Below, in pieces: positions 13,824 to 40,762 of a DNA stretch of 64,000 nt; the first letter of the stretch is position 1; each line of letters starts with the position of its first letter. The translations under genes were made by a program, and so were the position numbers. The DNA is from Pyrinomonadaceae bacterium (GTDB lineage Bacteria; Acidobacteriota; Blastocatellia; Pyrinomonadales; Pyrinomonadaceae), in NCBI GenBank assembly GCA_014380365.1, contig JACMJZ010000032.1, positions 104,860 to 168,859 on the forward strand, written 5' to 3'. The notes beneath the pieces were generated by a model. The model was not told where the DNA came from. It saw nothing but the letters and a program-made list of their open reading frames with translations, and ran no database searches.

Positions 13824-14057
13824 ATGAGTCAGACTCTCGATGCGATAATTGATGAAGACGGAGCGGTTCGCCTATTACGGCCGGTTCATTTGTCCGGAGC
13901 TCGCAGGGCCCTCGTTACAATCCTGGACGACCAAGCTGATTGGGAAGGGGATCTCGATGCTGGCTACCGGGAGATGGCGCTGGATGAAGAGCGAGAAACT
14001 GAGGCACTTGAACTGGCTGAAGCAACCATTGGAGACGTGAGCGATGAAACGCGGTGA
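13824..14057 (+). CDS. type II antitoxin (DUF104-like N-terminus, acidic C-terminus)
   Basis: [28 protein letters not shown] resembles AF2212/DUF104 antitoxins. It overlaps the toxin gene by 14 nt. Confidence 0.65.
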
Positions 14058-14364
14058 AGTTTGGTGGGTCGCCTTTGATCCTTCAATAGGCGGTGAGATC
14101 AAGAAGACCAGACCGGCGGTCATCCTCAGCAATGACACTTCAAATAAGTATCTAAATCGTGTGCAAGTTGTGCCCTTAACGAGCAACATCGGCAAGCTTT
14201 ACCCTAGCGAAGCGTTCGTTACCGTTGGCGGCAAGCAAAGTAAGGCGATGGCCGACCAGTTGACCACGGCAAGTAAGCTGCGCCTGTCCAACTTTATCGG
14301 TGCCCTCTCACCGTCGGATCTGTCTGCAGTTGAATTTGCCCTTAGAACACAACTCAGTCTCTAG
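14044..14364 (+). CDS. mazF: MazF/PemK family endoribonuclease toxin
   Basis: [31 protein letters not shown]...VVPLTS is the canonical PemK/MazF signature. Confidence 0.9.
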
Positions 14365-15165: not shown

Positions 15166-15315
15166 TTAGAAATTCCCACTGCAATCGTCATGTCCGCAAT
15201 CGCAATCAAGCTCGATCGTATCCCCAGTACCTTGACACGAAGCGCTGCAGTATTTGCCGTCGTGCGGAGCACAACCGCAAACCGGATTCTTACAGGTTTC
15301 TTTCTCGTCTGCCAT
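15166..15315 (-). CDS. SmtA/BmtA-like bacterial metallothionein (49 aa, 8 Cys, 2 His)
   Basis: MADEKETCKNPVCGCAPHDGKYCSASCQGTGDTIELDCDCGHDDCSGNF. GKYCSASC and CGHDDC resemble SmtA GLYYCSEAC and CGHTGC. A GGAGG lies 4 nt upstream of ATG 15315. Confidence 0.7.
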   Translation of the reverse strand: MADEKETCKNPVCGCAPHDGKYCSASCQGTGDTIELDCDCGHDDCSGNF

Positions 15316-15541
15316 GATGCCTCCTGAACCGTTTCTCTCAAAGTAGGGCGTACAGAGTAGCACATCCTGACGTGCCCTGACTTCTACATTCTTTGACAGA
15401 AGGACGATCCACGAAACCCTCTACTAACTCGAACTAAGAACCCGTTTCGTGTTCCTTCGTGCGATTTCGCGGATTCTTCGCAGGTTTTCCGCAGGCTGCT
15501 ACGGCTCGTCGTCCTCATCGTCCTCCTGCTGCGCAACTGTC

Positions 15542-16003
15542 TCAATCGCTCCCCTTGATTTCAACAACCTGATCACAGCTTTGTTGTTTTCCTCGATGGC
15601 GTGCGCCAGAGCATCTTTCTTTTTGTTGTCGACCGGCGGAATCGCGCAACGGGCAGCTTTGCGTGTTCGGGGACGCGTGGGCGACTGCGCTGGTCACGCT
15701 CAAGGTTGCGGTGAATGCTCCGGCAGCGATGCGTGAGGCGCGGCGACTGATGCGATGGAGCTTCAGTGCAGCTTGCGCCAGCAAAGGCTTTCCGTTTCCA
15801 TCTGAAACATACTGAACGCACAGACGCCCGTTTGAGCGCGCCACGAGACGCTGAACCTGATGGCGTGTCATCTGAGAAAGGTTGTGCACGGAAAGATCGC
15901 AGTGTTCGCAGAAACGGATTTGATCGTTCCCCTTCATTGAGTTCCAATCCACGCTGCAGGGACTGGGAATGGTCAGGGTTTTTAGGAAGAGTTTCGATGG
16001 CAT
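15542..16003 (-). CDS. small Cys3His-motif protein with one TM segment (possibly frameshifted at the 3' end)
   Basis: MPSKLFLKTLTIPSPCSVDWNSMKGNDQIRFCEHCDLSVHNLSQMT... then the hydrophobic IAAGAFTATLSVTSAVA. AAGGAG upstream of ATG 16003. Lies immediately downstream of the A2M gene. Confidence 0.6.
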   Translation of the reverse strand: MPSKLFLKTLTIPSPCSVDWNSMKGNDQIRFCEHCDLSVHNLSQMTRHQVQRLVARSNGRLCVQYVSDGNGKPLLAQAALKLHRISRRASRIAAGAFTATLSVTSAVAHASPNTQSCPLRDSAGRQQKERCSGARHRGKQQSCDQVVEIKGSD

Positions 16004-16128
16004 GGTGGTCTCCTTATCACGTTGCAGTTGATCGGAGAGCCGGGGAGAGAAGCTCTGGCGCGTTCTGCGCCGACTTAGACAGCCGGCCGGGACAGTTGTT
16101 CCGGGCCAATGCCGAGCGGCAAATAAAC

Positions 16129-19100
16129 TCATCTGACCACGAACGTTGCCGGCTCGACCACGACGCGAGCGTCGGGATTGTAGTAGTCATACATAAGGGA
16201 AGGCGCAGTCTTCGCGGTCATCGCCAGGCGCGGACGAAACTTAAAGGCAAACTGGACCCCGCCCGAGCGTGGCCAGAGGTAAACGACCACACGGTCCGGC
16301 AAAACGTCGTAGTGGCTAAGGGCGCCACCAGACGCTTTCATGGCGCTTTCGAGCGAGGCACGGTCGACGTCGGCTCCCGGAGGCAAGCCAATTTCCGCCA
16401 GCATCATTCCATAACGTGAATAGTCAACCCGTTCCGCTTTCACGCTGCACACAATCTCGTCGTTGATCCCGGCTGCCTTCTTGTCGAACGTAGCCGAGAG
16501 GCGCAACGAACTCGCGGCTCCGTTCACAGCAGGGTCCCCGGAAGCAACTGCCGACCAGGGCACGTAGTAGTTTGCTACGAGCTGGGCCGAGGCGAGGCCC
16601 GAGCCAGCGCTGCGACGCAACTCCACATGGTTTGCCCCGGGCTGCAAGAAGCGCGAGATATCGGCACGAACCAACCCGGTGTTCTGCTCGCGCGTGGGGA
16701 GCTGCAAGGAGGTCGCCAGCAGACCGTTGACGATCACCTCAACCGGAGTCCCTTGCGCGGCCGACTGTCGATCAGGCGAGATGTCAGTCGCCAGCAACGT
16801 CGTGAGGGTGTCCAGCACGTTGATCGTTGCCTGTGTCGAATACCAAACTCCGTAGCGGTCTTTCTGTCGCAGCAGGTGCAGCAGGCCACGGCTAACAACC
16901 GGGTCAGCAGACTGTCCGCGCGTCGTTGTCAGATCTGGCTGTGTTTTTGCAAATCGGGCCAGGGCCTGGGTAGCCAGGGCGGTTGTCTCCACCTCTCCGG
17001 CGAGGCCCCAACCATTGAATGGCGTGGCAGTTTCCAGCTTCCAATAGGTCGTGTCGCCTTCGTTACGGGCCAGGGCACGCAATCTTGCGACGGCACGGCT
17101 CGCGCCGGGCCTATCCCCGGCGTCTATCGCTGCCAGCGCATACGACGCGATCAAATGGGGCTCATCGATCGCTTCAATCTTCGGCGACAGATATGACAGC
17201 GCGCGTTTCAACTCGGGTGATGCGGTCCTGGCCGCCGTTGCGCCACCGGTCGACGCTTGGGGCTCAGTCATCGCCAGCACGCGCGCCACAAAGGCGGTTT
17301 GCAACGCAATCCCTCGCAGCTTATCAACTTGCCCTGAATTGTATGCCGACGCGGGCCAACTGCCGTCGGCGTGCTGCTGTTTGACCAGCCATTGGCGCAG
17401 ACCTTTGACCACCTCGGGATCCACTGAGACGAACTCCGCGGCGTCGTGCAGGAACCGCAGTGCATATGCGCTCAACGCGAGATCCGGTTCGCCGTGTCCC
17501 CAGTATGAGAATCCGCCGTTTGTACTGCGGTAATTGAGCAGGCGTTGGTAGCCCGCTCGAGCATAACGCTGCGCTTGCGCGCGTATTGGCGAACCTGTCT
17601 CCGACTGTTTATTGCCTCGCAAGACCAGCAGGCTCGGATAGGTTGATGAAATTGTCTGCTCGCCGCAGCCATAGGGCCGTTTCAGAATCCCTTCAATGCT
17701 CTCGATGACATGCGACATCAAACCGGGATAGATCTTCAATTCTGCCTGGGTCGAACCGGGGATCGCAGAAGCAGGAAGATTAATGTTCAGCATGGCTGTA
17801 TCGCCGAATACCTGGCTGGCAGTTTGCGTTTTTTCTTCGCCGTCCGGATGAACCGTTACCGGCTTTTCAATCGCGTCACTCGCCTCGGATCCGCGCGCTG
17901 TGATGCGTTGCTTGCCGTCCTTCACCGACGCCACGGCCTTCAACTCAAACGTCTGGCGCGAGGCTTCACCGGCGGGAACATCCGCGCGCTGCCGTGCGGG
18001 TCCCAGCAGTGCGAACCAACTCTCCGGTTTAATTTCGAGATCGACCGCCTGACCCCGTTCGAGATAGTTTCGCAAAACGATGGGCAAGGAGATTTGGTCG
18101 CCTTCAGTGAGCACGCGTGGCGGATCGTGTTCTACAAAAAACGGCTGAAAGGCCTTTATCTCAGTTTCCGCCACTCCAAGTTCGCCATCTTCAGTCGAAC
18201 CGATGACCGACATCTTCCAGGTAGTGATGTTGTCGGCGAGCTTAAACTTCAACTGCGCGCGACCGTGCTTATCAGTCTCCAGCGATGGCTGCCAAACGAG
18301 CGTTTCGGGAAAGTACTCGCGCAGCCGCGGGGTGGTCAGTTGCATTGGGTGGGCGATGGAAACGCGTAGGCGGCCTTCCGTAATTGTGGTGGCCACTGAT
18401 GAGGAAGTCATGTTCATAACGTCAGCTGCCGCCGACACGGTAACAGTCTCGCTAACAGTGCCCGGGTAGAGAGTGAAATTGACAGTGGTTACGTTCGAAG
18501 AGCTGACGGGGACTTCCAGAACGGTTACCTTCGTAAAACCCGGGGCCTCGCAGCGCACTTCGTAAAAGCCAACGGGGAGGTTGCGCAAGATGAATCTACC
18601 CTCGTCATCAGTTTTGGTCTCAAAGTTCTGCGACGAGTTCTTTAACGAAGCCGTCACTGCAATCCCCGGCACAACTGCGCCATTAGGGTCCGTGACGACG
18701 CCTTTTATTGCGCCTTTTGACCCTGGAAAGAAGATCCTTTGCGATGGCTGGTTCGCTGGCACACCGCTGCGAGACAGTTCAGCTGTTAGCCGAGAAAACG
18801 TTGCGACGTCAAAATCATCTGCGGTCCCTTCTTTGCCGTCCTCACCGCTGCTTCGCAAGCTAATGAAGCCGACGTGGTGGGTCACGGGTGTAGTTTCCAT
18901 GCGCTCTTTAGGCAGCTGGCCATAGGTGGCAAAGCTCTGAATTACTGTCCGGTCGGCAAGACGCATTTCGGTCTTGTAGGACGCGTAAAAACGATGACCC
19001 CAGGGATCGCGCAACGTGGCCGCTTCGATACCCGAGGTGGCAAATGCCTGCTGCAACTCGCTGTCGTTGCGTGGAAAACTGTGCATTTGTTCAAAGTACT

Positions 19101-22100
19101 CATCAATTGCTTTTTCCATGCGGGCACGCGTTTCGACGAGGTAGTTAACACTCGCAAGCCAGACTGTGACATCGTCGGACGTGGTGTGTGCATCCGCGAA
19201 ACTCTTATCTGGACCGGCACTCCTGACGGTTACGTTGAATAGATGCAGCCTGGTGGTGAAGTTGAGTTGGTAGGGTTGTCCCCACGGATCGCGTAGAGAG
19301 TCAAAATCGATTCCTTCGGCCCGCAATTCGTTTTTGAGCGTCGTGGCATTGCGGATGAAGCCGCCGGTGCGCGCGTGAAAGCGTTTGACCGCACGACTTA
19401 TGGCCTCGCCAGTGAAACGAAAATAAGACCGAGTGATCCGGGCGACGGAGGAATCATCCCCGGTAGTGAAGACTTTGTCCGGGCCGGCGCTAATGATTTC
19501 GAGAACGCTGTCGTCCTGGACTACGGAGAACAATTCCCGGTAAGGCGTGCCCCACGGGTCGCGCAGTTGATCAAAGTCTATTCCGGATTCAAACAGCAGG
19601 CGAAGAAGACTTTCGCGATTCGAGGGATAGGTGCCGGCGTCCGTATATTGAGTCTGAAGAAGGTCGGCAATCGGCTTAATGTGCAGACCTGTCAGGTTGG
19701 CAAAGACCCTTGTGTGATCTGTTTCAAACCCCTCATGGCTAAAGACGGCGCGCTCTACCTGCCGGGCTCCGAGAAGTAACTCGGCGACCAGTTCCATGTC
19801 GTCCGGCAGCGGCTTTGCAGGGTCTAGCCGCTGCAAGTCTTTGCGGGTGATGCCCCCGATCTGGTTGTCATATCCCTGCCACTCGCTGAAACTCCCGGAA
19901 AAACCAAACCGCCCTCCAAACTCCCGCTCGGTTCGTGCCCGCTCCTCGACTGCTTGATCGAAGATAACGATTCCCAGCGCGCTGTCGGCCGGTCGTCCGT
20001 CAGGCGCGAATACGCGAAAGTCCACCGTTGCACTCTCGCCCGGCTTGTAGGCGGGATGATCCAGACGCAACTCGACGTTAAGATCGCGATTCCGTGGGAA
20101 GAGAACCGTGCGAGAGCCGAACGGATGGTAGTAGTCGGAATATTCCGAAGTTCTGGAGTAGACGGAGATGGAAAGTTCATCCTGAAACTCGGGCCGGTAA
20201 GCGAGGGTGAATGTTGCTGCCCCGTCGTGCAGGGAGAGCGTTCGTGATTCGATGATGTGCGACTCGCGCGCGACGTCAACAACCATGTTCATTTCGGGCT
20301 TGCTCGCCGTGACGCTCACCCTGATTGGGTCGCCGCGCCGGTACAGAACTTTATCGGTTTCGACTCGAATCACCGGAACATCGCGATCGTAAAACGATTC
20401 CACGTGATGACCCAGCGACCCAGCGCCATTGCGTGCGGTGAAGGCGAGGGACAAGTTTCGCTCTCCGGATGTGGCCGGCAGTTTGAGTCCCGTGACTTTC
20501 GCGAGGCCATACTTGTTTGTGAGAATGGTCTGGAGAACAGGTGTGGGACTTCCGGGTTTGTCGTCCCCGCGGGCTGATTCGCTGATAGCGACCTCGCAAC
20601 GAGCGGGTGTGCCGTCGGCATAAGACGTTGCCAAATAGTATTGCATTGGGAAGTCCCGCGCCTGCCGGTTATTACCCTCGGTAACGTAAATGTGAATTGC
20701 CTCTTTCGTGAGCCGTAGATCGAAACGTCGCTGCTCTGTTCGGTTGCTCGTAGGATCAGTGAAATAGGCTGCGAACTTCAGATCCTTAAAGCGGGAATAT
20801 TCTTCCTCCGCCAGTTCTTTGTGGGCCTGCCTCAAATCAACGCGCGCCACAAAGCGTCCAGCGTCGTCGGTTTCGCCTTCATACTCTTCGCCCTCATCGA
20901 TGTCCCACTTCTGTTCGCGAAAATTCCATTCGCGCTCATCTTCCAGCACCACGCGCACATGGCCGCGTTTCACCGGTTGGCCGAAAAGATAGTCTGCGCG
21001 CACCTCGACGTCCGCGTTGTGTTGCGGCAGGTAGTAGGTGCGATCCGGTTTTACGTTGACGGCGAAGGTGGGCAGATCGTAACGGCTAATCTTGACGATC
21101 TGAAGTCCTTCGGAATCGCCATAGTTCTCTTCATCCATTTCAACGCGGATCGAGTAGTCGCCAAGGCGCGTATTCTCCGGAATGACCCAGTCGGCGTTGG
21201 CGACGCCAAAACGCGAGGTGACCAGGCTCGCCTCGAAAACGTTTGTATTTTCGGGGTCATTTATCTTCAGGGTAGCTTCGGCATTCGCCGCCGCCCGGTT
21301 AGCGGAATTGAAAACCAGCGCCCGTATGTGGAGCGCTTGTCCGGGTTGATAGATAGGCTTGTCCGTGGTGACCATGATGCGTGTACTGTTGCACACCTCG
21401 ATCTCGTCGCTCATTTCCCTGATGTACCCGCCATGCCGCGCCACTACTTTGAGGTCGCCATCGCCAGGGCGGGTGCTGGCTGGAACGTCAATGCTCACGA
21501 GCGCATAGCCGGAGTCGTCCGTTATTCCGCGGTTGGTGATCTTTGCTGCCGGAGCATCCTCATCAACCTGAAACTCGACGCCAATTTCGACACCCTTAAC
21601 GGGCTTCCGGGTTATGGGATTGAAAGCGCGAACATGCGTGTAGTGGCGAGTGCCCGCTTGCGTCTGGGCAGGAGCGGTCACTTCCAACGCAAAAATGTTT
21701 GGTGTGTCGATCTCCGAGAGTGAAATGACACCACTGACTGCGTCGAGGTTGGTCTTAGTTTCGCGGGATGGATCAATCCGATAGCGTAAGCGGTACCACG
21801 GCAGCGCCGTGTCACCGTCTTTAGTCAAGCTTCTCGCGGACAGCGCCAACGGAACAGTCAACTTGTTCAGGCCGGGTCGGAGCGCAAAATTGCGAACGCC
21901 TGATCCCTGAGCGGCGTCGTCGGGATCCAGGAGTTCCAGCCTTAGATGGACCGACAGCTCCTGGCTTAATGGGTTTACCACCTCCAGAATGACGATCACC
22001 TGATCCTCAATCAGAAACCTGGTGGCGGCCTCGTTAACCCGCAACCCGCTAGTAGCAGTTACCAGTTGGACAAAGAAAACGGCAAGCGAAAGGCCCAGGA

Positions 22101-22125
22101 GAGAGAAAAGCCATCTGCGGCTCAT
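16129..22125 (-). CDS. alpha-2-macroglobulin family thioester protein (1998 aa) with inserted GspG-like repeats and a CarboxypepD_reg domain
   Basis: Signal peptide. Thioester motif PYGCGEQ (CGEQ is aa 1487-1490, nt 17656..17667). MG-domain-like N-terminal half. Three DPWG repeats (aa ~800-1115). GVVTDPNGAVVPGIAVTA...DDEGRFILRNLPVGFYEV. Confidence 0.9.
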   Translation of the reverse strand: MSRRWLFSLLGLSLAVFFVQLVTATSGLRVNEAATRFLIEDQVIVILEVVNPLSQELSVHLRLELLDPDDAAQGSGVRNFALRPGLNKLTVPLALSARSLTKDGDTALPWYRLRYRIDPSRETKTNLDAVSGVISLSEIDTPNIFALEVTAPAQTQAGTRHYTHVRAFNPITRKPVKGVEIGVEFQVDEDAPAAKITNRGITDDSGYALVSIDVPASTRPGDGDLKVVARHGGYIREMSDEIEVCNSTRIMVTTDKPIYQPGQALHIRALVFNSANRAAANAEATLKINDPENTNVFEASLVTSRFGVANADWVIPENTRLGDYSIRVEMDEENYGDSEGLQIVKISRYDLPTFAVNVKPDRTYYLPQHNADVEVRADYLFGQPVKRGHVRVVLEDEREWNFREQKWDIDEGEEYEGETDDAGRFVARVDLRQAHKELAEEEYSRFKDLKFAAYFTDPTSNRTEQRRFDLRLTKEAIHIYVTEGNNRQARDFPMQYYLATSYADGTPARCEVAISESARGDDKPGSPTPVLQTILTNKYGLAKVTGLKLPATSGERNLSLAFTARNGAGSLGHHVESFYDRDVPVIRVETDKVLYRRGDPIRVSVTASKPEMNMVVDVARESHIIESRTLSLHDGAATFTLAYRPEFQDELSISVYSRTSEYSDYYHPFGSRTVLFPRNRDLNVELRLDHPAYKPGESATVDFRVFAPDGRPADSALGIVIFDQAVEERARTEREFGGRFGFSGSFSEWQGYDNQIGGITRKDLQRLDPAKPLPDDMELVAELLLGARQVERAVFSHEGFETDHTRVFANLTGLHIKPIADLLQTQYTDAGTYPSNRESLLRLLFESGIDFDQLRDPWGTPYRELFSVVQDDSVLEIISAGPDKVFTTGDDSSVARITRSYFRFTGEAISRAVKRFHARTGGFIRNATTLKNELRAEGIDFDSLRDPWGQPYQLNFTTRLHLFNVTVRSAGPDKSFADAHTTSDDVTVWLASVNYLVETRARMEKAIDEYFEQMHSFPRNDSELQQAFATSGIEAATLRDPWGHRFYASYKTEMRLADRTVIQSFATYGQLPKERMETTPVTHHVGFISLRSSGEDGKEGTADDFDVATFSRLTAELSRSGVPANQPSQRIFFPGSKGAIKGVVTDPNGAVVPGIAVTASLKNSSQNFETKTDDEGRFILRNLPVGFYEVRCEAPGFTKVTVLEVPVSSSNVTTVNFTLYPGTVSETVTVSAAADVMNMTSSSVATTITEGRLRVSIAHPMQLTTPRLREYFPETLVWQPSLETDKHGRAQLKFKLADNITTWKMSVIGSTEDGELGVAETEIKAFQPFFVEHDPPRVLTEGDQISLPIVLRNYLERGQAVDLEIKPESWFALLGPARQRADVPAGEASRQTFELKAVASVKDGKQRITARGSEASDAIEKPVTVHPDGEEKTQTASQVFGDTAMLNINLPASAIPGSTQAELKIYPGLMSHVIESIEGILKRPYGCGEQTISSTYPSLLVLRGNKQSETGSPIRAQAQRYARAGYQRLLNYRSTNGGFSYWGHGEPDLALSAYALRFLHDAAEFVSVDPEVVKGLRQWLVKQQHADGSWPASAYNSGQVDKLRGIALQTAFVARVLAMTEPQASTGGATAARTASPELKRALSYLSPKIEAIDEPHLIASYALAAIDAGDRPGASRAVARLRALARNEGDTTYWKLETATPFNGWGLAGEVETTALATQALARFAKTQPDLTTTRGQSADPVVSRGLLHLLRQKDRYGVWYSTQATINVLDTLTTLLATDISPDRQSAAQGTPVEVIVNGLLATSLQLPTREQNTGLVRADISRFLQPGANHVELRRSAGSGLASAQLVANYYVPWSAVASGDPAVNGAASSLRLSATFDKKAAGINDEIVCSVKAERVDYSRYGMMLAEIGLPPGADVDRASLESAMKASGGALSHYDVLPDRVVVYLWPRSGGVQFAFKFRPRLAMTAKTAPSLMYDYYNPDARVVVEPATFVVR

Positions 22126-23278: not shown

Positions 23279-23407
23279 GGCGGGGGCAAGCCCCCTTCCT
23301 GACTTTCGAGATTATTCGACCCATGTCTTGGCCTGAGATCAAAGCTTGAAGAAAAGTAATTGCGACTCAGAAAGTCTCTAAGGTCAGGAAGGCGGGCTGG
23401 CCCCCGC
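23279..23407. repeat. MITE-like element, ~25-bp terminal inverted repeats GCGGGGGCAAGCCCCCTTCCTGAC
   Basis: Arms at 23279..23303 and 23383..23407 with a ~80-nt spacer. Same family as 33223..33357 and 40807..40881. The right arm contains the stop codon of the histidine kinase. Confidence 0.75.
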
Positions 23408-26400
23408 TCCTTTCAGTTGCAGCGTGAACACATTGGAGCCACTCTTCAGTTTGTCCCAGGAAATCTCCGCATCAATCAGACTCGCACGCGCGAGCATGTT
23501 TGCCAACCCGCGCCCGCTGCTTTTCTGGTTGGGATCAAGAGCGCGACCGTTGTCTTCGATCGTCAGGATGAAATTGGGCGCAGCGTGTACTTCCATCCTC
23601 ACGTGCGTGGCGCCGGCATGCCGGCAAATGTTACTCACCGACTCCTGCACAATGCGATAAATCTGCATTTGCACATTTCCCGGCAGTCGCGCGTGTTCCT
23701 CCAGATGTTCGTCGCAAACAAATTCGTACTCAAACCGCTGATCGGCCGGCGCATCCTGGACCGCATGGGAAAGCGCAAACTCCAGGGCCGCCGCGAACCC
23801 AACATTTTGAAGCACCGACGGACTCAGGTCTTCACAAATGCGCCGCACCTCCTGCGAGATTGATTCGATCTCACTGCGCAATGCGGCGGGGCCTGGTTGG
23901 GCATTGCGTTGCTGGCCACGTCGTTCACCCTCCCCGGGGTCACCGCTTGTTGGAAGCTGATCTGTTAGAAGTTGCAAGTGGCGCAGGTCGGCCAAAGTTT
24001 GATCGTGCAGGTCGCGCGCGATCCGGCGTCGCTCGCGTTCCGCTTCATTAGCGAGGTTGAGTCGCGCATCCGCCAGTTCGCGGTTCGCATCAACAAGCGC
24101 GGCGCTGGTGCGCGCAATCCGGCGCCTTTCGAGAATCGCCCAGATCAAGGCAAGCAGCGCCAGAGCCAGGAGAATGGCGAGCGCGGTTGAGGTCCATGGA
24201 AACGGCGACTTCGCAATAGCCAACTCAAACGACAACGGCTCCGAGGAAAGCAGATCCTTGCTGAACGCGCGCGCGGTGACTCGATACTTGCCCGCCGCTA
24301 GTCCTTCCATCGCAAACTGCGACTCGCGCGAGAGCCTCTGCTTGATGACCTTGCCGTTTCCGTCGAGCAGCGCAAACGAGTACTGAAACTGCTCCGGGAA
24401 AGTGCGACTGCTGATCGCCGCGACGTCCAGAAGCAAACTGTTTTGCGGATACTCGAGGCTGAGTCCTGACGCCAGTTCGCTGGGAGAATGCACGCGCTTG
24501 CTAATGACCCGAGTCGCATACAACGTGGGTGTTGTTCGGCCGGACTGGTAGCGCGCGATGCCGCGGCCCGTGCCGATGAGCACAGACTCGCTACCGTCCG
24601 GTTGAGACTCGGGACGAACTGCGAAGACGTTCTGCGAGGGCAGGCCCTGCTCGACGTCGAGTTGGGAAACCACCGGGCCAGCCTGATCGTCGAGCCTGAT
24701 CTTCAACAGCCCGTTTCCCGTGGTGGCGCACCACATCTCATTTCGTTTTGTTTCGGCATCGCGCGCGAGTGAACGCGCTTCGATTCCCGCTGCGGTCAGA
24801 ATGCACTCGCTGTCGGCCTTGCATAAATAGACGCCGCGATTCGTGGCGAACCACAACGTGTCGTCGAGCGTGCTCAGAATCGAGCGCACAGTGCTGCCTT
24901 TGAGTTTGGCGAAAGCCGGATCCTGCTTCACCTCGTTACCATCAAACGAGAGGACTCCGTCAGAGGCGGAGCCAACTAAGAGCCTGCGGTCGCCGTCGGC
25001 AAAAAGACTGATCACATCGCGTGGGACAGCGAGGTTTGCGCTCCAAAGATTCTGGAGCCGGCTCTCCTCAAGTCGCTCAACACCGCGCCCGTAGCTGGCG
25101 ACGTAAACCGATCCGCGAAATTGAGTGATGGCCCGGATGCTGCCGACCGCATCCGCATTACCGGAGCCGGCCTCAACTCTGTTGAAGCTGAGAGATTCGA
25201 GCTTCGTGTCCCTGGAAGGTCTTGTTCCCACATAGAAACCGCTGGCTGACCCGACGAGCAGACGTCCCTGATTGTCTTCGGCGATCGAATAAACGATATT
25301 CCGCGCGAGCCCGCCCACAGGGTTCCACTCAGACGATGAGGCGTCGTGAACGAAGAGCCCGCGGTTGGTTCCAGCCAACAGATGGCCCTCGGACGTTTGG
25401 TAAAACGTGCGCACGAAATTGCTTTCGGCCAGGTCGCCGATGGTCTCCACCCTGACCGCGTTTGGATCGAAACGACAGACTCCCCGGTCAGTTCCAAACC
25501 AAATCACGTCTTCGCGGTCCTGGAAAATCGTGTAGACGTGATCCGAACGCAAACCTCCTGCGGTGCCGTCAAACGTGTAACGCTGGACCTTCTTCCCTTC
25601 GGAGAAACGAAAGACGCCGCGTCCGTCAGTGGCAACCCAGACATCTTTTCCAATCGACTTAATACTCGTTACTGTCCCGGTCGGTGTTTCGTTGCGGACA
25701 AGTTTTTCCACTTCCCACCCCGTCAGAAGTGCCGGTTCCTCTTTCTTCACGCGCAGGCCGACCCAAAGTTTGCCGCTCGGATCCGCTTCCATCGAACGCA
25801 CAAAGAAACTTGTGGGCCGGGTTTCAATCTCGCGCGCCTGCCCGTCTGCAATCGCCAGCACGCCCCGACTGAACGAGCCGGCGAAGAGCGTATGGTTGAG
25901 CATCATCAAGCTCGTCAGTTGCAGTGCGCCCGGATTGTCGCGGTCGGCGCTTTGAAGTTGTTGAGTCAGCAGGGGCTCGGTCCGCCGTGATCCATCCGCC
26001 TGAATCCGGCAGTCGAAAATGTTTCCCTGCTCGGTAGCCAGCAGCGCACGACCGCTTTCAGGCGTGAGAATAGCAGCGATGGGGTGGCCGTTGATTTCCG
26101 TTATGGCTTCGAAACGGCCATCAACCATGCGTGCCGCGCCTGTTTCCGTGCCAATCCACAACGAGCCGTCCGCATCGCTTTGCAACGCCAGTACTCGGCC
26201 TGGCGCCAGACCGTTGATAGAGATGGTCTGAGTCCTGCGCCCGTCAAACTTTGCCAAACCCGCTTCCGTTCCAAACCACATCGCACCCTCCGGCCCCTGT
26301 GCGATCGCGTGCACCCGATCGGAAGGCAGGCCGTGAAAAAGTGTGACCGCGCCCCACTGGTGGAGCCCCGTAACGGGCGTCGGAGAAGGAGAAGGAGACG

Positions 26401-26593
26401 GCGATGGTGATGGTGAAGGACTTGGTGAAGGACTAGGGGAGGATCCAGGCTGAACCTCTTGAGATGAGGCAGGTGCCGGCGGTAGTAACGCGAGGGAGAA
26501 GGCAGTAAGCAGTAGGCAGAAGGCCGAAGGCAGGAAGAACTTGAAACGCAAAGGGCGCGAAGCAAGACGCAGAGAACGCGAAGCGATCCGCAT
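23384..26593 (-). CDS. sensor histidine kinase: periplasmic beta-propeller repeats plus Y_Y_Y-like region, TM, HisKA_3 and HATPase
   Basis: Repeated WFGT/WIGT/WVAT propeller motifs. H-box RRRIARDLHDQTLADL. ATPase IEDNGRAL...GRGLANM. Signal peptide and (SP)10 linker. Start taken at ATG 26593 (MRIASRSL). Confidence 0.85.
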   Translation of the reverse strand: MRIASRSLRLASRPLRFKFFLPSAFCLLLTAFSLALLPPAPASSQEVQPGSSPSPSPSPSPSPSPSPSPSPTPVTGLHQWGAVTLFHGLPSDRVHAIAQGPEGAMWFGTEAGLAKFDGRRTQTISINGLAPGRVLALQSDADGSLWIGTETGAARMVDGRFEAITEINGHPIAAILTPESGRALLATEQGNIFDCRIQADGSRRTEPLLTQQLQSADRDNPGALQLTSLMMLNHTLFAGSFSRGVLAIADGQAREIETRPTSFFVRSMEADPSGKLWVGLRVKKEEPALLTGWEVEKLVRNETPTGTVTSIKSIGKDVWVATDGRGVFRFSEGKKVQRYTFDGTAGGLRSDHVYTIFQDREDVIWFGTDRGVCRFDPNAVRVETIGDLAESNFVRTFYQTSEGHLLAGTNRGLFVHDASSSEWNPVGGLARNIVYSIAEDNQGRLLVGSASGFYVGTRPSRDTKLESLSFNRVEAGSGNADAVGSIRAITQFRGSVYVASYGRGVERLEESRLQNLWSANLAVPRDVISLFADGDRRLLVGSASDGVLSFDGNEVKQDPAFAKLKGSTVRSILSTLDDTLWFATNRGVYLCKADSECILTAAGIEARSLARDAETKRNEMWCATTGNGLLKIRLDDQAGPVVSQLDVEQGLPSQNVFAVRPESQPDGSESVLIGTGRGIARYQSGRTTPTLYATRVISKRVHSPSELASGLSLEYPQNSLLLDVAAISSRTFPEQFQYSFALLDGNGKVIKQRLSRESQFAMEGLAAGKYRVTARAFSKDLLSSEPLSFELAIAKSPFPWTSTALAILLALALLALIWAILERRRIARTSAALVDANRELADARLNLANEAERERRRIARDLHDQTLADLRHLQLLTDQLPTSGDPGEGERRGQQRNAQPGPAALRSEIESISQEVRRICEDLSPSVLQNVGFAAALEFALSHAVQDAPADQRFEYEFVCDEHLEEHARLPGNVQMQIYRIVQESVSNICRHAGATHVRMEVHAAPNFILTIEDNGRALDPNQKSSGRGLANMLARASLIDAEISWDKLKSGSNVFTLQLKGAGASPPS

Positions 26594-26655
26594 CAATTGG
26601 CGGGCAATTATTCCTTGCGACCTTTGCGGAAAGCTTTGCGTACTTTGCGGTGTGT
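26544..26655. repeat. imperfect hairpin of CGCAAAG-type words spanning the kinase start codon
   Basis: 26544..26592 carries GAAACGCAAAGGGCGCGAAGCAAGACGCAGAGAACGCGAAGCG. 26614..26655 carries CCTTGCGACCTTTGCGGAAAGCTTTGCGTACTTTGCGG. ATG 26593 lies in the loop. Same words as 54054..54127. Confidence 0.55.
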
Positions 26656-26657
26656 TT

Positions 26658-27431
26658 CTATTTCTTCCGTTGATTCGCACTCTTCTGTTCGTCTAAGAAG
26701 CGTTTCCCATCGCGCTCAAGCCAGGCTTCGAGTTCCTGGGCTGCCTTTTCCAGTTCGTCGTTGTTGAGTAGTCCACGTCGGAGCGCTTCAAAGAAGGCGC
26801 GCGTGCGTACATTGTAGGCGAGCTTTTCGTAAGCTTCGTGCGGCGTACCCTCCGCCGTTGAGGTGAAAAGCTTTTCGTAGAGCGTCGCCAGGCGGCTCTC
26901 CACGCCGCGCAGACTCAGCGAGCACTTCCGCGCAATCGCCCAGTTTGAAAGACCGAGCGCGAGATAGTAAAGCGCTTCTGATTCAAATTCAGTCAAGAGC
27001 GGCCGTTTGAACGAATCTTTGAACGCCGGATCGATCATGTCGGCGCCGTCTTCGAGTACCGCAGCTACGAAGCGGAGGAAACGCGACTCGGGATTGTTCT
27101 TGTGAATGAACCCGTAGGCCGGCGGCGGATCGACTGACTTAACAATCTTGCGGATCTCGTTGATATAAATTTCGTGTGGAAACTGCGTCCAGAAGATGAT
27201 GCGCGCGGAAGGGAAGTCGCGCCAGATAGCGCGCGCGGCTTTCACACCGGAAAGTTTGGGCATCTGGATGTCGAGGATGCAGAGCTCGGGCCGGTGCTCC
27301 AACGCCAGCTTGACCGTCTCCTCGCCGTCCGCTGCTTCCACGATGGGCAGGTGCGATGAAAACTCTTTGTCCAGAATCTCGCGCAGGTAGTGGCGCTGGG
27401 CCACGTTGTCTTCGGCAATTAGTATCGACAT
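26658..27431 (-). CDS. NarL/LuxR-type response regulator
   Basis: REC domain (MSILIAEDN..., ELCILDIQMPKLSG) and a GerE-type HTH (LTEFESEALYYLALGLSNWAIARKCSLSLRGVESRLATLYEKL). Lies directly upstream of the kinase. Confidence 0.85.
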   Translation of the reverse strand: MSILIAEDNVAQRHYLREILDKEFSSHLPIVEAADGEETVKLALEHRPELCILDIQMPKLSGVKAARAIWRDFPSARIIFWTQFPHEIYINEIRKIVKSVDPPPAYGFIHKNNPESRFLRFVAAVLEDGADMIDPAFKDSFKRPLLTEFESEALYYLALGLSNWAIARKCSLSLRGVESRLATLYEKLFTSTAEGTPHEAYEKLAYNVRTRAFFEALRRGLLNNDELEKAAQELEAWLERDGKRFLDEQKSANQRKK

Positions 27432-27574
27432 TGTGGCGATGATAGCCTGAAACGTCCCGCGCATAAACGTGGCATGCCACAGTTGCAATGACGGATCTGG
27501 CCACTGTGCGAGGATGCGACGGTTTGCTGGCAATCGGCTGTGCCACCCGATGTGCGGAAGGTCTCTTGGTAGCG

Positions 27575-35788: not shown

Positions 35789-38700
35789 ATGAGTGTAGAC
35801 GATCGCGACAACGGTCCCGGGAAAGACTCGTCCCCATCCGGAAGTTCACCGAATAATTCGGCGAACGATCAGGAGATTGCTGAGGCCCTGCAGTCCAAGA
35901 CTGACGAGCCACTGCCGCCGGTTGCCGAAGTCATTGCCGAGCGCGACGCCCAAAGCAAACATCCCGTAACTCCGCAGGGCCGCCGCCGTCGTTATCTGAA
36001 TCAACGCAACCTCGTAATCGCGACAATCTTCGGCGCCGTTGGCATCGTAGCCTTAATCCTGCTGATCTTTCTGGCGTACAAACTCGGCTACACGGATCGC
36101 TACGTGGCGGGCCAGATCAAAGAGACGTTTGCGAAGTATGGCATTCGCGCGGAGATCAAAGAGTTTCATGCCGGCTTCCCACCGCAAACTGTCGAGATGT
36201 CAGGACTGGAACTTTTCGACGCTCAGACAGGAGAGAAGCTCGGGAAAATTGATCGACTGTCGGCGACTGTACGCATCGAGGATCTCTACGCTTTCAATCT
36301 GCAACGAAACATCAATCTCAAAGAACTCAAGATCGAGGGACTCGAAGCATGGGTCACATTTGATGCGCAGGGCAACTCAAACTTTCGCAACATCCGCATT
36401 CCCGCGCCCGAGCCCAACAAGAACATCCTATTCGCCTACTCCACCGCCTTCGTCCAAATAAAGAATGGTGTCATTCACTATGGCGATGCGCGTCATGAAA
36501 TTTCGGGCGAAGCTCGCAATCTCAACGCCACTGTCCAACCCGACGATCCCTCCGCGCCGGCTGCCAGCTGGATGAACACCGTAGTCCTCGGGCTCTCAAA
36601 TTCCACCTTCACTTACGACGGTCGCGCCGTTGACAACATCGGAGTCGAAGCTCGCGGACGCATAAATCAGACGCGCGCCGAGATCCAGTCGCTCGTGATC
36701 AAGTCGCCGCTGGCCGAAGCGCAGCTGAATGGGACGATGGACGACTGGCGCGCGCTTCGTTATCAGATGAACATCACTTCTTCCGTCGATCTTACGCAGC
36801 TCTCCGACCTGCTGCAGGCGGGCACGACCCTGCGTGGGGCCGGAAATTTTGCGGGCACGGTTACCGGCGAAGGCGATAATTACAAGGTTGACGGCAGCAT
36901 CAAGTCAGACGCGCTGGCGGCTGACGGCCTGCGCCTGCAAGGCCTGAATGTTACTGCCCGTGGCACGGGCCAAGGCAAGAGCTACGATCTGAACGGCAGC
37001 GCAGTGGCGGCTTTGCTCACGGCCGGCGACTTCCAACTCAACAACGTGCAACTTGTTGGCGGCGTGATGGGCACCGGCTCGGATTTTAGCTGGATCGGTG
37101 ACTTGCGCGCAGCCGCCGAGCGAAGTTACGGGACGACCATCACGAATTTGATACTGCAGGAGGCGCGGGCCGAGATGAACGACGGCGTGCTGACGGCTTC
37201 GTCGAGTCAATTTACGGCCGGCAGTCTGGCTAGTTCCGGCGCACGGGTTAACGGCATCACCGCTTCGGATTTACGTCTGCGCAGCGAAGGGGATTCCGCC
37301 ACGGCGTCGGTTTCCAAAGTGAAGGCGGGGACAATCGTCGGCTCCGGGGCGACGGTTAAAGGTGTCACGGCAAACAACGTGGACATCGCCAGCCGGGGTG
37401 GCGTGACGAGCGTAGTTGTAAAGGACGTGCAGGTTGGCGGAGCGAATGCCGCTGGAGCCGAGATTGGCAGCATCAGCATCGCGGGGGTACGGCTGTCCGT
37501 TCGTGGCGGACGGATGGAAGGGTCAACTGCGGACATCAATGCCGGCACAGTGAAACTTGCCGACGGCCAGGTGGAAAACGTGAAGCTGGCAAAGCCAGTC
37601 TTTGTCGTTGAGCCATCTGGCAGGTATCGAGCCAGCGCCGATTTGAGTCTCGGTGGGGGCATGCTGGGCCAGATGAACATGGGCCAGGCCAGCGCGAAGG
37701 TAGTAGTTACCAACACCGAGCTGCAACTCAACAACTTCGACGCCGACATCTTTCGCGGCAAGGCAAATGGCAACGCGAGAATAGCAATTGCCCGCGGCGG
37801 CACGTCACGCATCGCCGCCACCTTTGCCGACGTGGACGTTTCCGGACCGTTCACCGCCTTTGCCGGCGCTGCTGTCCCGCTTGCGGGCCGCGCGAGCGGC
37901 AGGATTGACCTGGCGTTTCCCGGCACCAATTTCCACCAGGCGACTGGAACACTGAATACCACCTTCACCGGACAGGACATCGGAGTGGACGGACGCGTGC
38001 CACTGTCAGGCGAGGTGGCAGTACGCGCCGATAAGGGTTTATTCAATATTGAAAAGGTTGATCTGCAAACCGCCGCGACCAAACTCAGGGCGACGGGACA
38101 GTTTTCCTTCACCGCTGATTCAAATCTTCAGGTCGACCTGAATTCCACCGACGCGGCGGAGTTGCAGGCGGTCTTGATCTCTTCGGGCCTGCTGCCGGAT
38201 GTGGAAGAGCAGATGCGCAGCTATGGGATTGACCTCGGCGGGCAGTTGGCTTTCAACGGGAGTCTAAAAGGAAAACTGACTTCGCCGGATATCGACGGGC
38301 GCGTCTCGCTGAGCACTCTCCTAATTAATGGAAAGGACCTTGGCGCCTTGTCCGCATCGCTCCGGATGACGGCGGCAGAGATGCGCATCGACGATGGACG
38401 CCTGACGGAAAGTGACGGCGGCGGGATGCAGTTTACGCTTGACGCCCCGCGCACCGGCGAAAACAACATCACGCTTAACGCCACGCTCGACCGCGTCAAC
38501 GCGGGCAACCTGCTCGCAGCGCTCCCGCTCAACAAGAACACCCGGGAACAGTTTGGCGACACTGTGGCTGATGCATCTGGTCAAATAAAGATAACTGGAA
38601 TTCCCGGCGCGATGAGCGGCAGCGCTGATTTGGCATTTGGTCCGGGCCGCCTCGCCGGCGAACCGCTCGAGGGCCTGGTCGCGCGCGCTACGTTCAGCGG

Positions 38701-40762
38701 ATCGAAAGTCAGCATCGAAAATATCGATGCGAAGCTGGCGGCGGGTCACATCGTTGCAAGCGGTGCATACGACACGACTACGAAAGCGTTTGAGATGAAG
38801 GGCCGAGCGGAAGGCGTTCAACTCAGCCGTCTCTTCGCGCTTACCGGTCAGCAGGGCGCCACGGTGTCAGGCATAGCAAACTTCAATGCTCAGATATCGG
38901 GAAGCTCATCCGCGTTGGACTTCTCCGGTTACCAGATCACGTTCGACGGCGAAGGAAACAACGTAGTCATCAACGGCCGCCCGGCAGGCACTCTTGCCCT
39001 GGTGGGTCGGACAGAAAACCAGCGACTCAACGTGACGCTGACAACCGGCCTTTTGGGAACGCCACAATCAATCACAGCGCAGGTTAATCTCGGCAGCGAG
39101 AAACTGGAAGCTAACGTCGAAACCACGCTCAACAATGCCGACCTCACGTCTCTGCTGAAAATGGTTTTGCCGCAGACCCCGGTAAAACTTTCGGGCCTTG
39201 CCACGGGCACGCTGAAGTTAAGCGGGAATCTGCTCGACGAAGACGGTTACCCTTCCGCCGGAGGTTTAAGCGGAGTTGCAAACTTCACCCAGCTCAGTTT
39301 CAGAGTTGAAGATGTTCAGCTCAACGCATCGTCGCCGCTAGTCGTGCGTTTTTCGCCGCGCGAAGTAGCTTTTGATCAGACCCGGTTCACGGGCCCTGGA
39401 ACAAATATCGTTCTCGGCGGCACGCTCGCCGTGGGTCCGGAAGGTCGGCAGAGCATGACGGCCGACGGACAGTTGAACCTCAGAGTGTTGAATGGACTGT
39501 CGCCCGATGTGTTCATGTCCGGGACGGCAGAGGTCGGCGTGCGGGTCACGGGCAGCTACGAACGGCCGCGACTAAACGGCAGCGCTTCCGTCGCCGGAGG
39601 TTCCGTCTCGGCACTGCTGGACAATGAACGGTGGACTGTCTCGAATTTAAGAGCGCTCGTCAGGTTCACTTCCAACCAGGCGCAGATTGATTCATTGACG
39701 GGGACGATGGGGGGCGGCCGGCTCTCCGCAACCGGAGGCGCGCTGCTCGATGGTTTCACCGTGTCGCGGTTCTTATTCAACATCCATGGCGATGACGTGT
39801 CGGTGACGATCCCGGAGAACTTCCGCTCGACGATTGACGCGGATATTGAGCTTAAGGGAACCGCTCGCGAGCAACTGGTTGGTGGGGTGATTAATGTGCG
39901 CCGTACTGAATACACCGAGGACATCGAGCTGGCCGATCTGATTAATACCCGGCGCGAAGAGTCGATTGAAGAGGGTGGCGACCTGGAGTTGACGCGAGCG
40001 ACGCTGTACAGCAACCTGCGAATTGAAGGTCGCAACGCGCTGGTGGTGAGAAACAATCTTGCCGATCTGGTTGGCTCCTTCTCGCTGCAGCTCAACGGGC
40101 CCGTAAAAGAACCCGTGATCTCCGGAAGGATTACGGCCACCAGCGGCACTCTGAATTTCCGGAACGATCGTTATCAGATAACCCGCGCTCTGATGGACTT
40201 GCCGGCGCAGCGCGATGCCGATCCGATAATCAACATTCAGGGCGAGTCGCAGATACGTGGCTACCGCGTGACCGTCGGACTGAGTGGTCCTCTTTCGCAG
40301 CCACAGGCGATAGTGAGTTCGGAGCCGTCGCTCCCGCAGGCGGATGTCGTTTCGTTGATCACGACCGGCCAGCTCTCGACCGGCGACACCAGCACCTCTG
40401 TCCTTTCACAATCCGGTTTGGGAACAGCGACCAGTCTGCTAACCGACGCCCTTATCAACGCCCCGGCACAACGCGCTACCAGCAGACTCTTCGGGTTGAG
40501 CCGTTTTGAGATAACTCCGGTAATCGGTGGACGGGGAACGTCGCCGTCGGCTCGCCTGACGCTGGGGAAGAGAATTAACAAAGACCTTACGTTTACTTAT
40601 TCGACCAATGTGACGTCTGATCCCAATCAGATTTTGGCTGTCGAGTATCGAGTGTCAGACAGGCTGTTTTTCATTGCGCAGTACGAACAAGTCTCTACGC
40701 AGAGATTAACTGCGCGCAGCGATAATTTTAGTTTTGAGATTAGGTTCAGAAAACGATTCTAA
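35789..40762 (+). CDS. tamB: TamB/AsmA-like translocation and assembly module protein (1657 aa)
   Basis: N-terminal TM anchor, long beta-rich repetitive body, and a C-terminal TamB/DUF490-like segment (INIQGESQIRGYRVTVGLSGPLSQPQAIVSSEPSLPQADVVSLITTGQ). Confidence 0.8.
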   Translation: MSVDDRDNGPGKDSSPSGSSPNNSANDQEIAEALQSKTDEPLPPVAEVIAERDAQSKHPVTPQGRRRRYLNQRNLVIATIFGAVGIVALILLIFLAYKLGYTDRYVAGQIKETFAKYGIRAEIKEFHAGFPPQTVEMSGLELFDAQTGEKLGKIDRLSATVRIEDLYAFNLQRNINLKELKIEGLEAWVTFDAQGNSNFRNIRIPAPEPNKNILFAYSTAFVQIKNGVIHYGDARHEISGEARNLNATVQPDDPSAPAASWMNTVVLGLSNSTFTYDGRAVDNIGVEARGRINQTRAEIQSLVIKSPLAEAQLNGTMDDWRALRYQMNITSSVDLTQLSDLLQAGTTLRGAGNFAGTVTGEGDNYKVDGSIKSDALAADGLRLQGLNVTARGTGQGKSYDLNGSAVAALLTAGDFQLNNVQLVGGVMGTGSDFSWIGDLRAAAERSYGTTITNLILQEARAEMNDGVLTASSSQFTAGSLASSGARVNGITASDLRLRSEGDSATASVSKVKAGTIVGSGATVKGVTANNVDIASRGGVTSVVVKDVQVGGANAAGAEIGSISIAGVRLSVRGGRMEGSTADINAGTVKLADGQVENVKLAKPVFVVEPSGRYRASADLSLGGGMLGQMNMGQASAKVVVTNTELQLNNFDADIFRGKANGNARIAIARGGTSRIAATFADVDVSGPFTAFAGAAVPLAGRASGRIDLAFPGTNFHQATGTLNTTFTGQDIGVDGRVPLSGEVAVRADKGLFNIEKVDLQTAATKLRATGQFSFTADSNLQVDLNSTDAAELQAVLISSGLLPDVEEQMRSYGIDLGGQLAFNGSLKGKLTSPDIDGRVSLSTLLINGKDLGALSASLRMTAAEMRIDDGRLTESDGGGMQFTLDAPRTGENNITLNATLDRVNAGNLLAALPLNKNTREQFGDTVADASGQIKITGIPGAMSGSADLAFGPGRLAGEPLEGLVARATFSGSKVSIENIDAKLAAGHIVASGAYDTTTKAFEMKGRAEGVQLSRLFALTGQQGATVSGIANFNAQISGSSSALDFSGYQITFDGEGNNVVINGRPAGTLALVGRTENQRLNVTLTTGLLGTPQSITAQVNLGSEKLEANVETTLNNADLTSLLKMVLPQTPVKLSGLATGTLKLSGNLLDEDGYPSAGGLSGVANFTQLSFRVEDVQLNASSPLVVRFSPREVAFDQTRFTGPGTNIVLGGTLAVGPEGRQSMTADGQLNLRVLNGLSPDVFMSGTAEVGVRVTGSYERPRLNGSASVAGGSVSALLDNERWTVSNLRALVRFTSNQAQIDSLTGTMGGGRLSATGGALLDGFTVSRFLFNIHGDDVSVTIPENFRSTIDADIELKGTAREQLVGGVINVRRTEYTEDIELADLINTRREESIEEGGDLELTRATLYSNLRIEGRNALVVRNNLADLVGSFSLQLNGPVKEPVISGRITATSGTLNFRNDRYQITRALMDLPAQRDADPIINIQGESQIRGYRVTVGLSGPLSQPQAIVSSEPSLPQADVVSLITTGQLSTGDTSTSVLSQSGLGTATSLLTDALINAPAQRATSRLFGLSRFEITPVIGGRGTSPSARLTLGKRINKDLTFTYSTNVTSDPNQILAVEYRVSDRLFFIAQYEQVSTQRLTARSDNFSFEIRFRKRF

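Follow-up and report, generated by a model that had tools for sequence, protein, structure and literature searches.

We analysed a 64,000-nucleotide (nt) stretch of DNA from a Pyrinomonadaceae bacterium of the phylum Acidobacteriota (positions 104,860 to 168,859 of contig JACMJZ010000032.1, assembly GCA_014380365.1), referred to below as the window. The subject of this work is one gene in the window, which encodes a thioester protein of the alpha-2-macroglobulin (A2M)/TEP family with three tandem pseudopilin-like modules and a beta-sandwich lying ahead of a bait-like segment (Table 1). The 1998-amino-acid (aa) open reading frame (ORF) proposed in an earlier reading of this DNA (the original prediction) is present at 16129..22125 on the minus strand and starts with ATG. 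Pfam finds MG2, MG3, A2M_BRD, T2SSG, CarboxypepD_reg, A2M, TED_complement and A2M_recep on the protein; a scan of NCBIfam returned no family model for it. An identical protein, derived from a metagenome-assembled genome, is deposited as 'carboxypeptidase regulatory-like domain-containing protein [Pyrinomonadaceae bacterium]' (P0030). The most hydrophobic 19-residue stretch of the protein is aa 6-24 (Kyte-Doolittle (KD) value 2.17), and its N-terminus, MSRRWL[FL]SLL, is conserved among homologues. Because the N-terminus is both strongly hydrophobic and conserved, the start codon and the predicted signal peptide are supported. The signal peptide has no cysteine and therefore no lipobox. The N-terminal sequence (aa 1-25, nt 22051..22125) also resembles the twin-arginine motif S-R-R-x-F-L; its h-region, however, is very hydrophobic.

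The framework of the protein is that of an A2M. The MG2/MG3 region aligns with MG domains of C5 and CD109, and the A2M_BRD match spans positions 1-137 of the 140 in the profile. The MG2, MG3, A2M_BRD, A2M and A2M_recep scores are all above their Pfam cut-offs. Conservation, expressed as entropy, indels and gaps, was computed over 190 full-length homologues, the set used throughout for such values. Few parts of the protein are as strongly conserved as the TPRLREYFPETLVWQP motif, which directly follows the bait-like segment (entropy 0.7-1.0; 0.78 directly after aa 1241-1260). The thioester sequence PYGCGEQ, at aa 1484-1490, is exactly as originally described, with its CGEQ at nt 17656..17667. 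Of the 190 homologues, at least 181 have C-x-E-Q, the variants tallied being CGEQ (151) and CAEQ (30).

Table 1 Features of the A2M-family gene and its product, in order along the protein
Feature	Position (nt)	Strand	Basis
Whole gene, A2M/TEP-family thioester protein	16129..22125	minus	1998 aa, ATG start; ORF list and translation
Signal peptide, aa 1-~25, without lipobox cysteine	22051..22125	minus	Hydrophobicity and conservation; putative cleavage site
MG2 (aa 250-335) and MG3 (aa 349-433)	20827..21378	minus	Pfam 90.3 bits and 32.2 bits
A2M_BRD (PF07703), aa 586-726, last MG domains ahead of the bait-region insertion point	19948..20370	minus	Pfam 26.8 bits, cut-off 22.7
Conserved linker into the modules, aa 727-802	19720..19947	minus	Moderate conservation, 190 homologues
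Pseudopilin-like module 1, aa 803-900	19426..19719	minus	Pfam T2SSG 24.4 bits alone; pattern D883-T888-D890-D891
Pseudopilin-like module 2, aa 901-996	19138..19425	minus	Pfam T2SSG 16.7 bits alone; z = 18.8 against module 1
Pseudopilin-like module 3, aa 997-1114	18784..19137	minus	Pfam T2SSG 19.4 bits alone; long beta-hairpin; pattern D1096-T1101-D1103-D1104
CarboxypepD_reg beta-sandwich, aa 1140-1219	18469..18708	minus	Pfam PF13620 69.9 bits, cut-off 32.3
Hypervariable bait-like segment, aa ~1225-1262	18340..18453	minus	Indel load, entropy, length variation
Conserved TPRLREYFPETLVWQP motif and Pfam A2M domain, aa 1264-1364	18034..18336	minus	Pfam A2M 80.3 bits at aa 1275-1364
Thioester domain, aa 1470-1775	16801..17718	minus	Pfam TED_complement 126.6 bits
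Thioester motif CGEQ, aa 1487-1490	17656..17667	minus	Read directly from the sequence
Receptor-binding/MG8-type C-terminal domain, aa 1906-1989	16159..16410	minus	Pfam A2M_recep 31.6 bits, cut-off 21.7

A feature of this protein is the distance between its A2M_BRD and Pfam A2M matches, which is about 540 residues. The order across this region is MG6a, the linker (in which the stretch aa 761-780 has an entropy of 1.69), modules 1 to 3, the CarboxypepD_reg domain, the bait-like segment and MG6b/MG7. In A2Ms the bait-region domain is normally inserted in MG6 and has 66-126 residues (PMC12939704); judged from these domain boundaries, that of the window protein is enlarged to about 540 residues, 4-8 times the usual size. 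The beta-sandwich, originally placed at aa ~1141-1220, is recovered by Pfam at almost the same residues, and CarboxypepD_reg was found in 120 of 120 homologues among the matches listed.

The bait itself appears to lie at the C-terminal end of the enlarged domain. The residues at aa 1241-1260 have the highest indel load of the protein (a mean of 11 inserted residues and 25% gaps) and an entropy of 2.82, in the top tier, and the length of the segment around them ranges from 21 to 102 aa among the homologues. A family profile aligns from 'sTPRLReyFPETLvWqP' (aa 1264-1280 of the window protein) to 'SSPHVRKHFPETWIW' of CD109, at residue 702, and the same stretch aligns to human A2M from residue 722; both sites directly follow bait regions, and the variable segment of the window protein directly precedes the motif aligned to the post-bait FPETWIW of CD109 and A2M. 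We read aa ~1225-1262 as the bait because the indel load is highest there, the length varies so widely and the conserved motif follows directly. This segment has the signature of a bait at the expected place, and its cleavage and accessibility are predicted. The insert had originally been put roughly at the bait region. The site indeed matches the bait-region domain, but the alignments place the three modules and CarboxypepD_reg N-terminal to a separate bait-like segment, so that insert and bait are distinct, the insert coming first.

The three repeats announced for about aa 800-1115 (nt 18781..19728) are all present, with the strings quoted for them: GIDFDQLRDPWG (aa 848-859) and IISAGPDKVFTTGDD (877-891) in module 1, GIDFDSLRDPWG (938-949) and VRSAGPDKSFAD (967-978) in module 2, and GIEAATLRDPWG (1032-1043) and LRSSGEDGKEGTADDF (1090-1105) in module 3. 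Each module has one DPWG, at aa 856, 946 and 1040, respectively. Pairwise local alignments of the modules compared with shuffled controls gave z = 18.8 (modules 1 and 2), 8.2 (1 and 3) and 11.6 (2 and 3). The tandem repeats are thus far above chance.

Profile searches relate these repeats to GspG, the major pseudopilin of the system for type II secretion (T2SS). In the whole-protein Pfam scan, T2SSG (PF08334) matched aa 814-890 with 36.4 bits against a cut-off of 21; when the insert was scanned alone, the same family was found in three stretches with 46.5-48.3 bits. T2SSG was also matched independently in 14 of 16 divergent homologues with 25-69% identity to the window protein. Among PDB sequences, the best match to a profile of the insert was GspG of enterohaemorrhagic Escherichia coli (EHEC; 3g20, E 0.0018), followed by further GspG entries. 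The GspG equivalog model TIGR01710 scored 32.5 bits on the insert (E 7.5e-8), far under its cut-off of 88.85, and covered aa ~945-989, within module 2.

The modules share with GspG, PulG and OutG not only the globular T2SSG profile but also the DPWG-x-Y strand and the D-x4-[TS]-x-D-D pattern of the calcium loop. OutG and PulG bind Ca2+ through D117, T/S122, D125 and possibly D124, at a site in the beta2-beta3 loop (PMC13081927). Modules 1 and 3 reproduce the spacing of these ligands exactly (D-x4-[TS]-x-D-D) and have there a putative metal site. The ligand positions (Asp, and Thr/Ser at 888 or 1101) are conserved in 182-189 of the 190 homologues for module 1 and in 172-180 for module 3. Unlike GspG, module 2 has in place of the calcium loop a longer, altered loop whose length varies across the family, and module 3 has a long beta-hairpin insertion.

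Predicted structures were obtained for the three modules together and for module 1 alone. The AlphaFold2 model of the trio, built from a 54-sequence alignment, has a pLDDT of 88.6 and a pTM of 0.74, and in it each module consists of a long helix, a short helix and three strands, the topology of the GspG globular domain. The model of module 1 (pLDDT 93.7, pTM 0.83) has the same helix-helix-strand-strand-strand order. A Foldseek search with module 1 returned chain 3g20_A, the EHEC GspG, as its top match (probability 0.99, query TM-score (TMq) 0.51, 111 aligned columns, full-domain coverage), with a type IV pilin at rank 8. The single module puts GspG first, and the three-module model gave no GspG match among its first 50. 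We conclude that the modules are probably homologous to the globular domain of the GspG major pseudopilin, with moderate structural support.

They are not pilins, however. No prepilin cleavage/methylation motif (G/FTLxE leader) was found anywhere in the 1998-aa protein, and aa 727-1140 include no hydrophobic alpha1-N helix (maximum KD over 19 residues, 0.76). Unlike GspG, PulG and OutG, the modules occur as three tandem copies fused inside another protein, and their gene stands outside any gsp operon. We considered and rejected the possibility that they are working pseudopilins; because leader and hydrophobic helix are both missing, they are better described as pilin-derived domains that would be unable to assemble as pilins. 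The assignment to GspG in the original prediction therefore holds for the globular domain, by a T2SSG score above the gathering cut-off and 3g20 as the top match, but does not extend to the leader and helix of a pilin or to the TIGR01710 cut-off.

The architecture is common. With the full-length protein as query, a search found 1181 relatives that reach E<=1e-10; among the 120 listed, the majority have a length of about 2000 aa and a precomputed PF08334 match. A phmmer search with the insert against 1.84 billion cluster representatives (50% identity) gave 474 matches at E<=0.001, of which 364 are at E<=1e-10. Of the 150 matches listed, those that are full-length have some 2000 aa, with the insert at about aa 800-1120. 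Scanning species-representative genomes for the locus, with a trimmed 7-sequence alignment as seed (a 16-sequence alignment was too divergent for this purpose), yielded 116 loci. Almost all are in Acidobacteriota, including Pyrinomonadaceae, other Blastocatellia, Acidoferrum, Angelobacter and Terriglobales, and about 60 have full-length collinear orthologues. Hidden Markov models (HMMs) specific to each module found the order m1-m2-m3 in 65 of 65 full-length homologues, three of which have an extra m1-like copy, and matched no other ORF in the window or in 80 loci. This fixed order indicates that the triplication is old and that each module has been kept in its position. As judged from these homologues, the module-bearing A2M architecture is lineage-wide in Acidobacteriota, a point on which the original prediction had left the insertion to be surveyed.

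Some genomes have tandem A2M paralogues, as at loci L073 (126-6119 and 6483-12260) and L061 (1-2628 and 2908-8904); all full-length paralogue copies (>=1800 aa) contain three modules. A search with the insert only returned 29 fragments, many of them frameshifted (P0001, P0004, P0005, P0016 and others), short and on long contigs. The frameshifted fragments apparently come from error-prone assemblies. Because so many entries are of this kind, the insert-only search (29) under-reports a family that has more than 1000 members by full-length query.

Next, we compared the protein with known A2Ms. In a single-sequence search of the PDB the best matches were CD109, A2ML1, human A2M, C4 and TEP1 (E ~1e-40), whereas YfhM/ECAM and the Salmonella A2M matched with only E ~1e-11 and over aa 1315-1588 only. 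With the family profile, metazoan proteins matched at 1e-61 to 1e-66 and no YfhM-type chain reached 1e-30. By sequence, the window protein thus resembles metazoan CD109, A2ML1 and A2M more than it does bacterial YfhM. Outside the insert its domain order (MG, BRD site, MG7, CUB/thioester domain (TED), receptor-binding domain (RBD)) is the same as, and collinear with, that of A2ML1, CD109 and human A2M, and it likewise has a CGEQ thioester and a variable bait just before the FPETW/LVW motif. It differs from them in its bacterial host, in the size of the bait-region domain (about 540 aa against 66-126) and in four folded domains there that are absent from any solved A2M.

Two kinds of bacterial A2M have been distinguished: type I has CXEQ and forms an operon with PBP1c (pbpC), and type II (MagD) has no thioester and belongs to a six-gene mag operon (PMC5764988). 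The window protein resembles type I (ECAM/YfhM and Sa-A2M) in being bacterial, in its CXEQ thioester and in the presumed cleavage of a bait followed by covalent capture (PMC5764988, PMC4498604). However, its match to type I is weak and partial; type I is an inner-membrane lipoprotein and the window protein has no lipobox cysteine; and the bacterial-specific bMG Pfam domain was not detected, bMG5 reaching only E 0.13. Neither the window nor the 80 loci contain a pbpC/PBP1c partner, in line with the original observation that none is adjacent. Membership of the YfhM type was rejected on the weak match and the missing pbpC partner. From type II the protein differs in having a thioester and in lacking a mag-like conserved operon. 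By these sequence comparisons, the family fits neither type I nor type II.

MG6 of complement components C3, C4 and C5 is split by a folded domain, the anaphylatoxin (ANA), which the activating cleavage site follows directly; ANA is small, disulfide-rich and helical. The insert of the window protein would occupy the same topological position, according to the alignment and the known architecture of C3, but has an unrelated fold, and no Pfam ANATO match was found in the window protein.

The genes around the A2M gene were clustered within 6 kb over the 80 loci. Every neighbour family is confined to at most 12 of the 80 loci and none is a penicillin-binding protein (PBP), so that there is no conserved operon partner and synteny is at clade level only. 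Nor are T2SS, type IV pilus (T4P) or gsp genes conserved beside the A2M gene in the 80 loci or adjacent to it in the window. Upstream on the same strand are a psuG-like Indigoidine_A gene and then genes for a sensor kinase and a LuxR-type regulator. The latter two, a Reg_prop beta-propeller histidine kinase (23384..26680, minus) and a LuxR-type response regulator (26658..27533, minus), are syntenic with A2M in about 8-10 close relatives only. The sole class A PBP of the window (46348..48954, plus) has transglycosylase and transpeptidase domains and no BiPBP_C; it lies 24 kb from the A2M gene and is therefore not a pbpC partner. Elsewhere in the window are a TamB-like gene (35789..40762, plus; 1657 aa) and an adjoining Omp85/POTRA gene (40765..44262, plus; 1165 aa).

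Directly downstream of the A2M gene is an ORF at 15542..16132 (minus), whose true start is likely near nt 16003. In 7-9 close relatives its orthologue has a Cys3His N-terminus (C-x16-C-x2-C-x4-H), a transmembrane helix, CarboxypepD_reg and ankyrin repeats, and it is 450-600 aa long in L058, L003, L037, L010, L017, L072 and L061. About 770 nt are missing from inside the window copy; its N-terminal ~117 aa are kept, and a C-terminal remnant is found in another frame at about 15532-15633. By this comparison the window gene is an internally deleted remnant: what had been taken for a small Cys3His protein does have the Cys3His N-terminus, but is what is left of a much larger protein. The other downstream gene, a 65-aa ORF at 15166..15363 (minus), has 10 cysteines and is conserved near the A2M locus in six relatives. 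It had been called a metallothionein, a label that the searches did not support: neither it nor the Cys3His ORF found metallothionein or zinc-finger support in Pfam or NCBIfam, even at E<=10. Further away, two overlapping ORFs (13824..14057 and 14044..14364, both plus) sit between a DUF72 and an acetyl-CoA synthetase gene. The second encodes 106 aa and by eye looks like a MazF/PemK-type toxin; the two may be a toxin-antitoxin pair. A relative was found in only 1 of the 80 loci, and this is therefore probably a recent insertion.

How would such a protein work? In the A2M family, bait cleavage leads to a conformational change and then to capture by the thioester, as set out in PMC9156758, PMC9352918 and PMC4498604. 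We consider it rather probable that the gene product is a secreted, thioester-bearing protease trap of the A2M/TEP family of Pyrinomonadaceae. By analogy with monomeric A2ML1, CD109 and ECAM, an attacking endopeptidase would cut the exposed, variable bait, and this cut would free a conformational lock and expose the buried thioester. The thioester would then link covalently to the protease, which would be blocked sterically. The part played by the modules is the weakest step of this proposal. With low confidence we suggest that modules and beta-sandwich form a rigid, Ca2+-stabilised, protease-resistant scaffold that would stay on the N-terminal fragment and present the bait. PulG is degraded without calcium (PMC13081927), and calcium loading may therefore matter for the modules too. 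We also speculate that this scaffold could shield one face of the MG ring sterically, or serve there as a bulky stopper, in a position that parallels that of ANA in C3, C4 and C5.

Several points weigh against this protease-trap reading and the module assignment within it. Protease inhibition, thioester reactivity, calcium binding and localisation are predictions. A single-sequence PDB search of aa 426-800, aimed at the N-terminal edge of the insertion, found no match; this edge therefore rests on the A2M_BRD hit, which is one weak Pfam match (26.8 bits). A functional clue from a conserved operon partner is missing over the 80 loci, and a large folded insert beside the bait could serve binding, localisation or signalling instead. 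For the modules themselves, modules 2 and 3 taken alone fall under the Pfam T2SSG cut-off of 21, the similarity of module 1 to 3g20_A is moderate (TM 0.51, rmsd 6.1, E 0.026), and a Foldseek search of the PDB with the three-module model had no GspG among its first 50 hits and nothing at E<=0.001, only noise (DnaK, SAS-6, XLF). These structural values, together with the score far under the TIGR01710 cut-off, would suit an explanation in which the likeness to GspG arose by convergence or is too slight to carry meaning and the repeats are a lineage-specific alpha/beta elaboration of the bait-region domain. It would also suit this explanation that the insert, compared by phmmer with 1.84 billion proteins, gave only 474 matches at E<=0.001, single-sequence comparison having missed the ubiquitous true GspG. 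We nevertheless regard it as very unlikely: the curated T2SSG cut-off is exceeded by the window protein and by most of the divergent homologues, GspG is the best PDB match both by profile and by structure, the latter over the full domain, and the spacing of the Ca2+-loop ligands is identical to that of GspG.

Other explanations accept the modules and give the protein another task. It could be a complement/TEP-like tagging protein and not a protease inhibitor, its activated thioester marking competitor cells, polysaccharide or biofilm matrix, with the pseudopilin trio and CarboxypepD_reg acting like ANA or a ligand-binding domain of C3, C4 and C5, as a released or recognition module. The folded insert does stand at the ANA site, directly before the activating cleavage site, but the Pfam scan found no anaphylatoxin-type domain, and the fairly conserved linker on the N-terminal side of the modules shows no sign of a second conserved cleavage site. 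In favour of tagging, the protein is closer to CD109, A2ML1, A2M, C4 and TEP1 (E ~1e-40 to 1e-66) than to YfhM (1e-11) and has a signal peptide but no lipid anchor; against it, a hypervariable bait is a signature of broad protease sensing and the present data identify no target surface. On balance we think such a tagging function unlikely. We are also doubtful that the modules are a docking or localisation device for the T2SS, the type IV pilus or another envelope structure, by which the macroglobulin would be positioned or exported or would interfere with that structure. The hydrophobic alpha1-N helix, which drives the assembly of pilins with one another, is missing from them; T2SS/T4P genes are not conserved nearby, nor is any neighbour family beyond the 12 loci given above; and the module HMMs, which match none of the other ORFs of the window and the 80 loci, indicate divergence from working pseudopilins. 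What speaks for docking is that the modules have the fold and Ca2+-site pattern of a major pseudopilin, whose surface contacts T2SS partners, and that the strict positional orthology of each module suggests a conserved surface of its own.

A further proposal goes beyond the protease trap. The family might represent a third class of thioester proteins in bacteria, metazoan-like in character, and be a secreted and calcium-gated device for covalent tagging or sensing and not a simple periplasmic inhibitor, which we hold to be decidedly unlikely. In that case the Ca2+-binding pseudopilin trio might act as an ANA/bait-region 'wedge' that holds the native state, for which we see a slim chance, and it might be repositioned or released after bait cleavage and bind pilus or secretion filaments or an envelope receptor, a suggestion to which we give little credence. 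If true, such a third class would touch on the question whether the TEPs of metazoans and of bacteria are more closely related by descent than one would suppose from the YfhM type.

A literature search found no paper that joins alpha-2-macroglobulin with a pseudopilin and none on A2M in Acidobacteria. The architecture is apparently undescribed in the literature, as the original prediction had supposed; it is not rare, however, since hundreds of relatives are public and automatically domain-annotated, with PF08334 computed. What we report is an undescribed, lineage-wide architectural variant of the known A2M family and not a new kind of system. It indicates that large folded modules, too, can be accepted at the insertion site where A2M has its bait and complement its anaphylatoxin, and the modules document a use of the pseudopilin fold outside filaments. 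The significance of the variant would rise if the modules prove specifically functional or if its metazoan-like character informs the origin of thioester proteins. The family offers a tractable bacterial model for the mechanics of the bait region and for the way in which bacterial and animal thioester proteins are linked in evolution. Finally, it is widespread in soil Acidobacteriota, which are abundant but little studied, and it probably has a bearing on how these bacteria withstand extracellular proteases.

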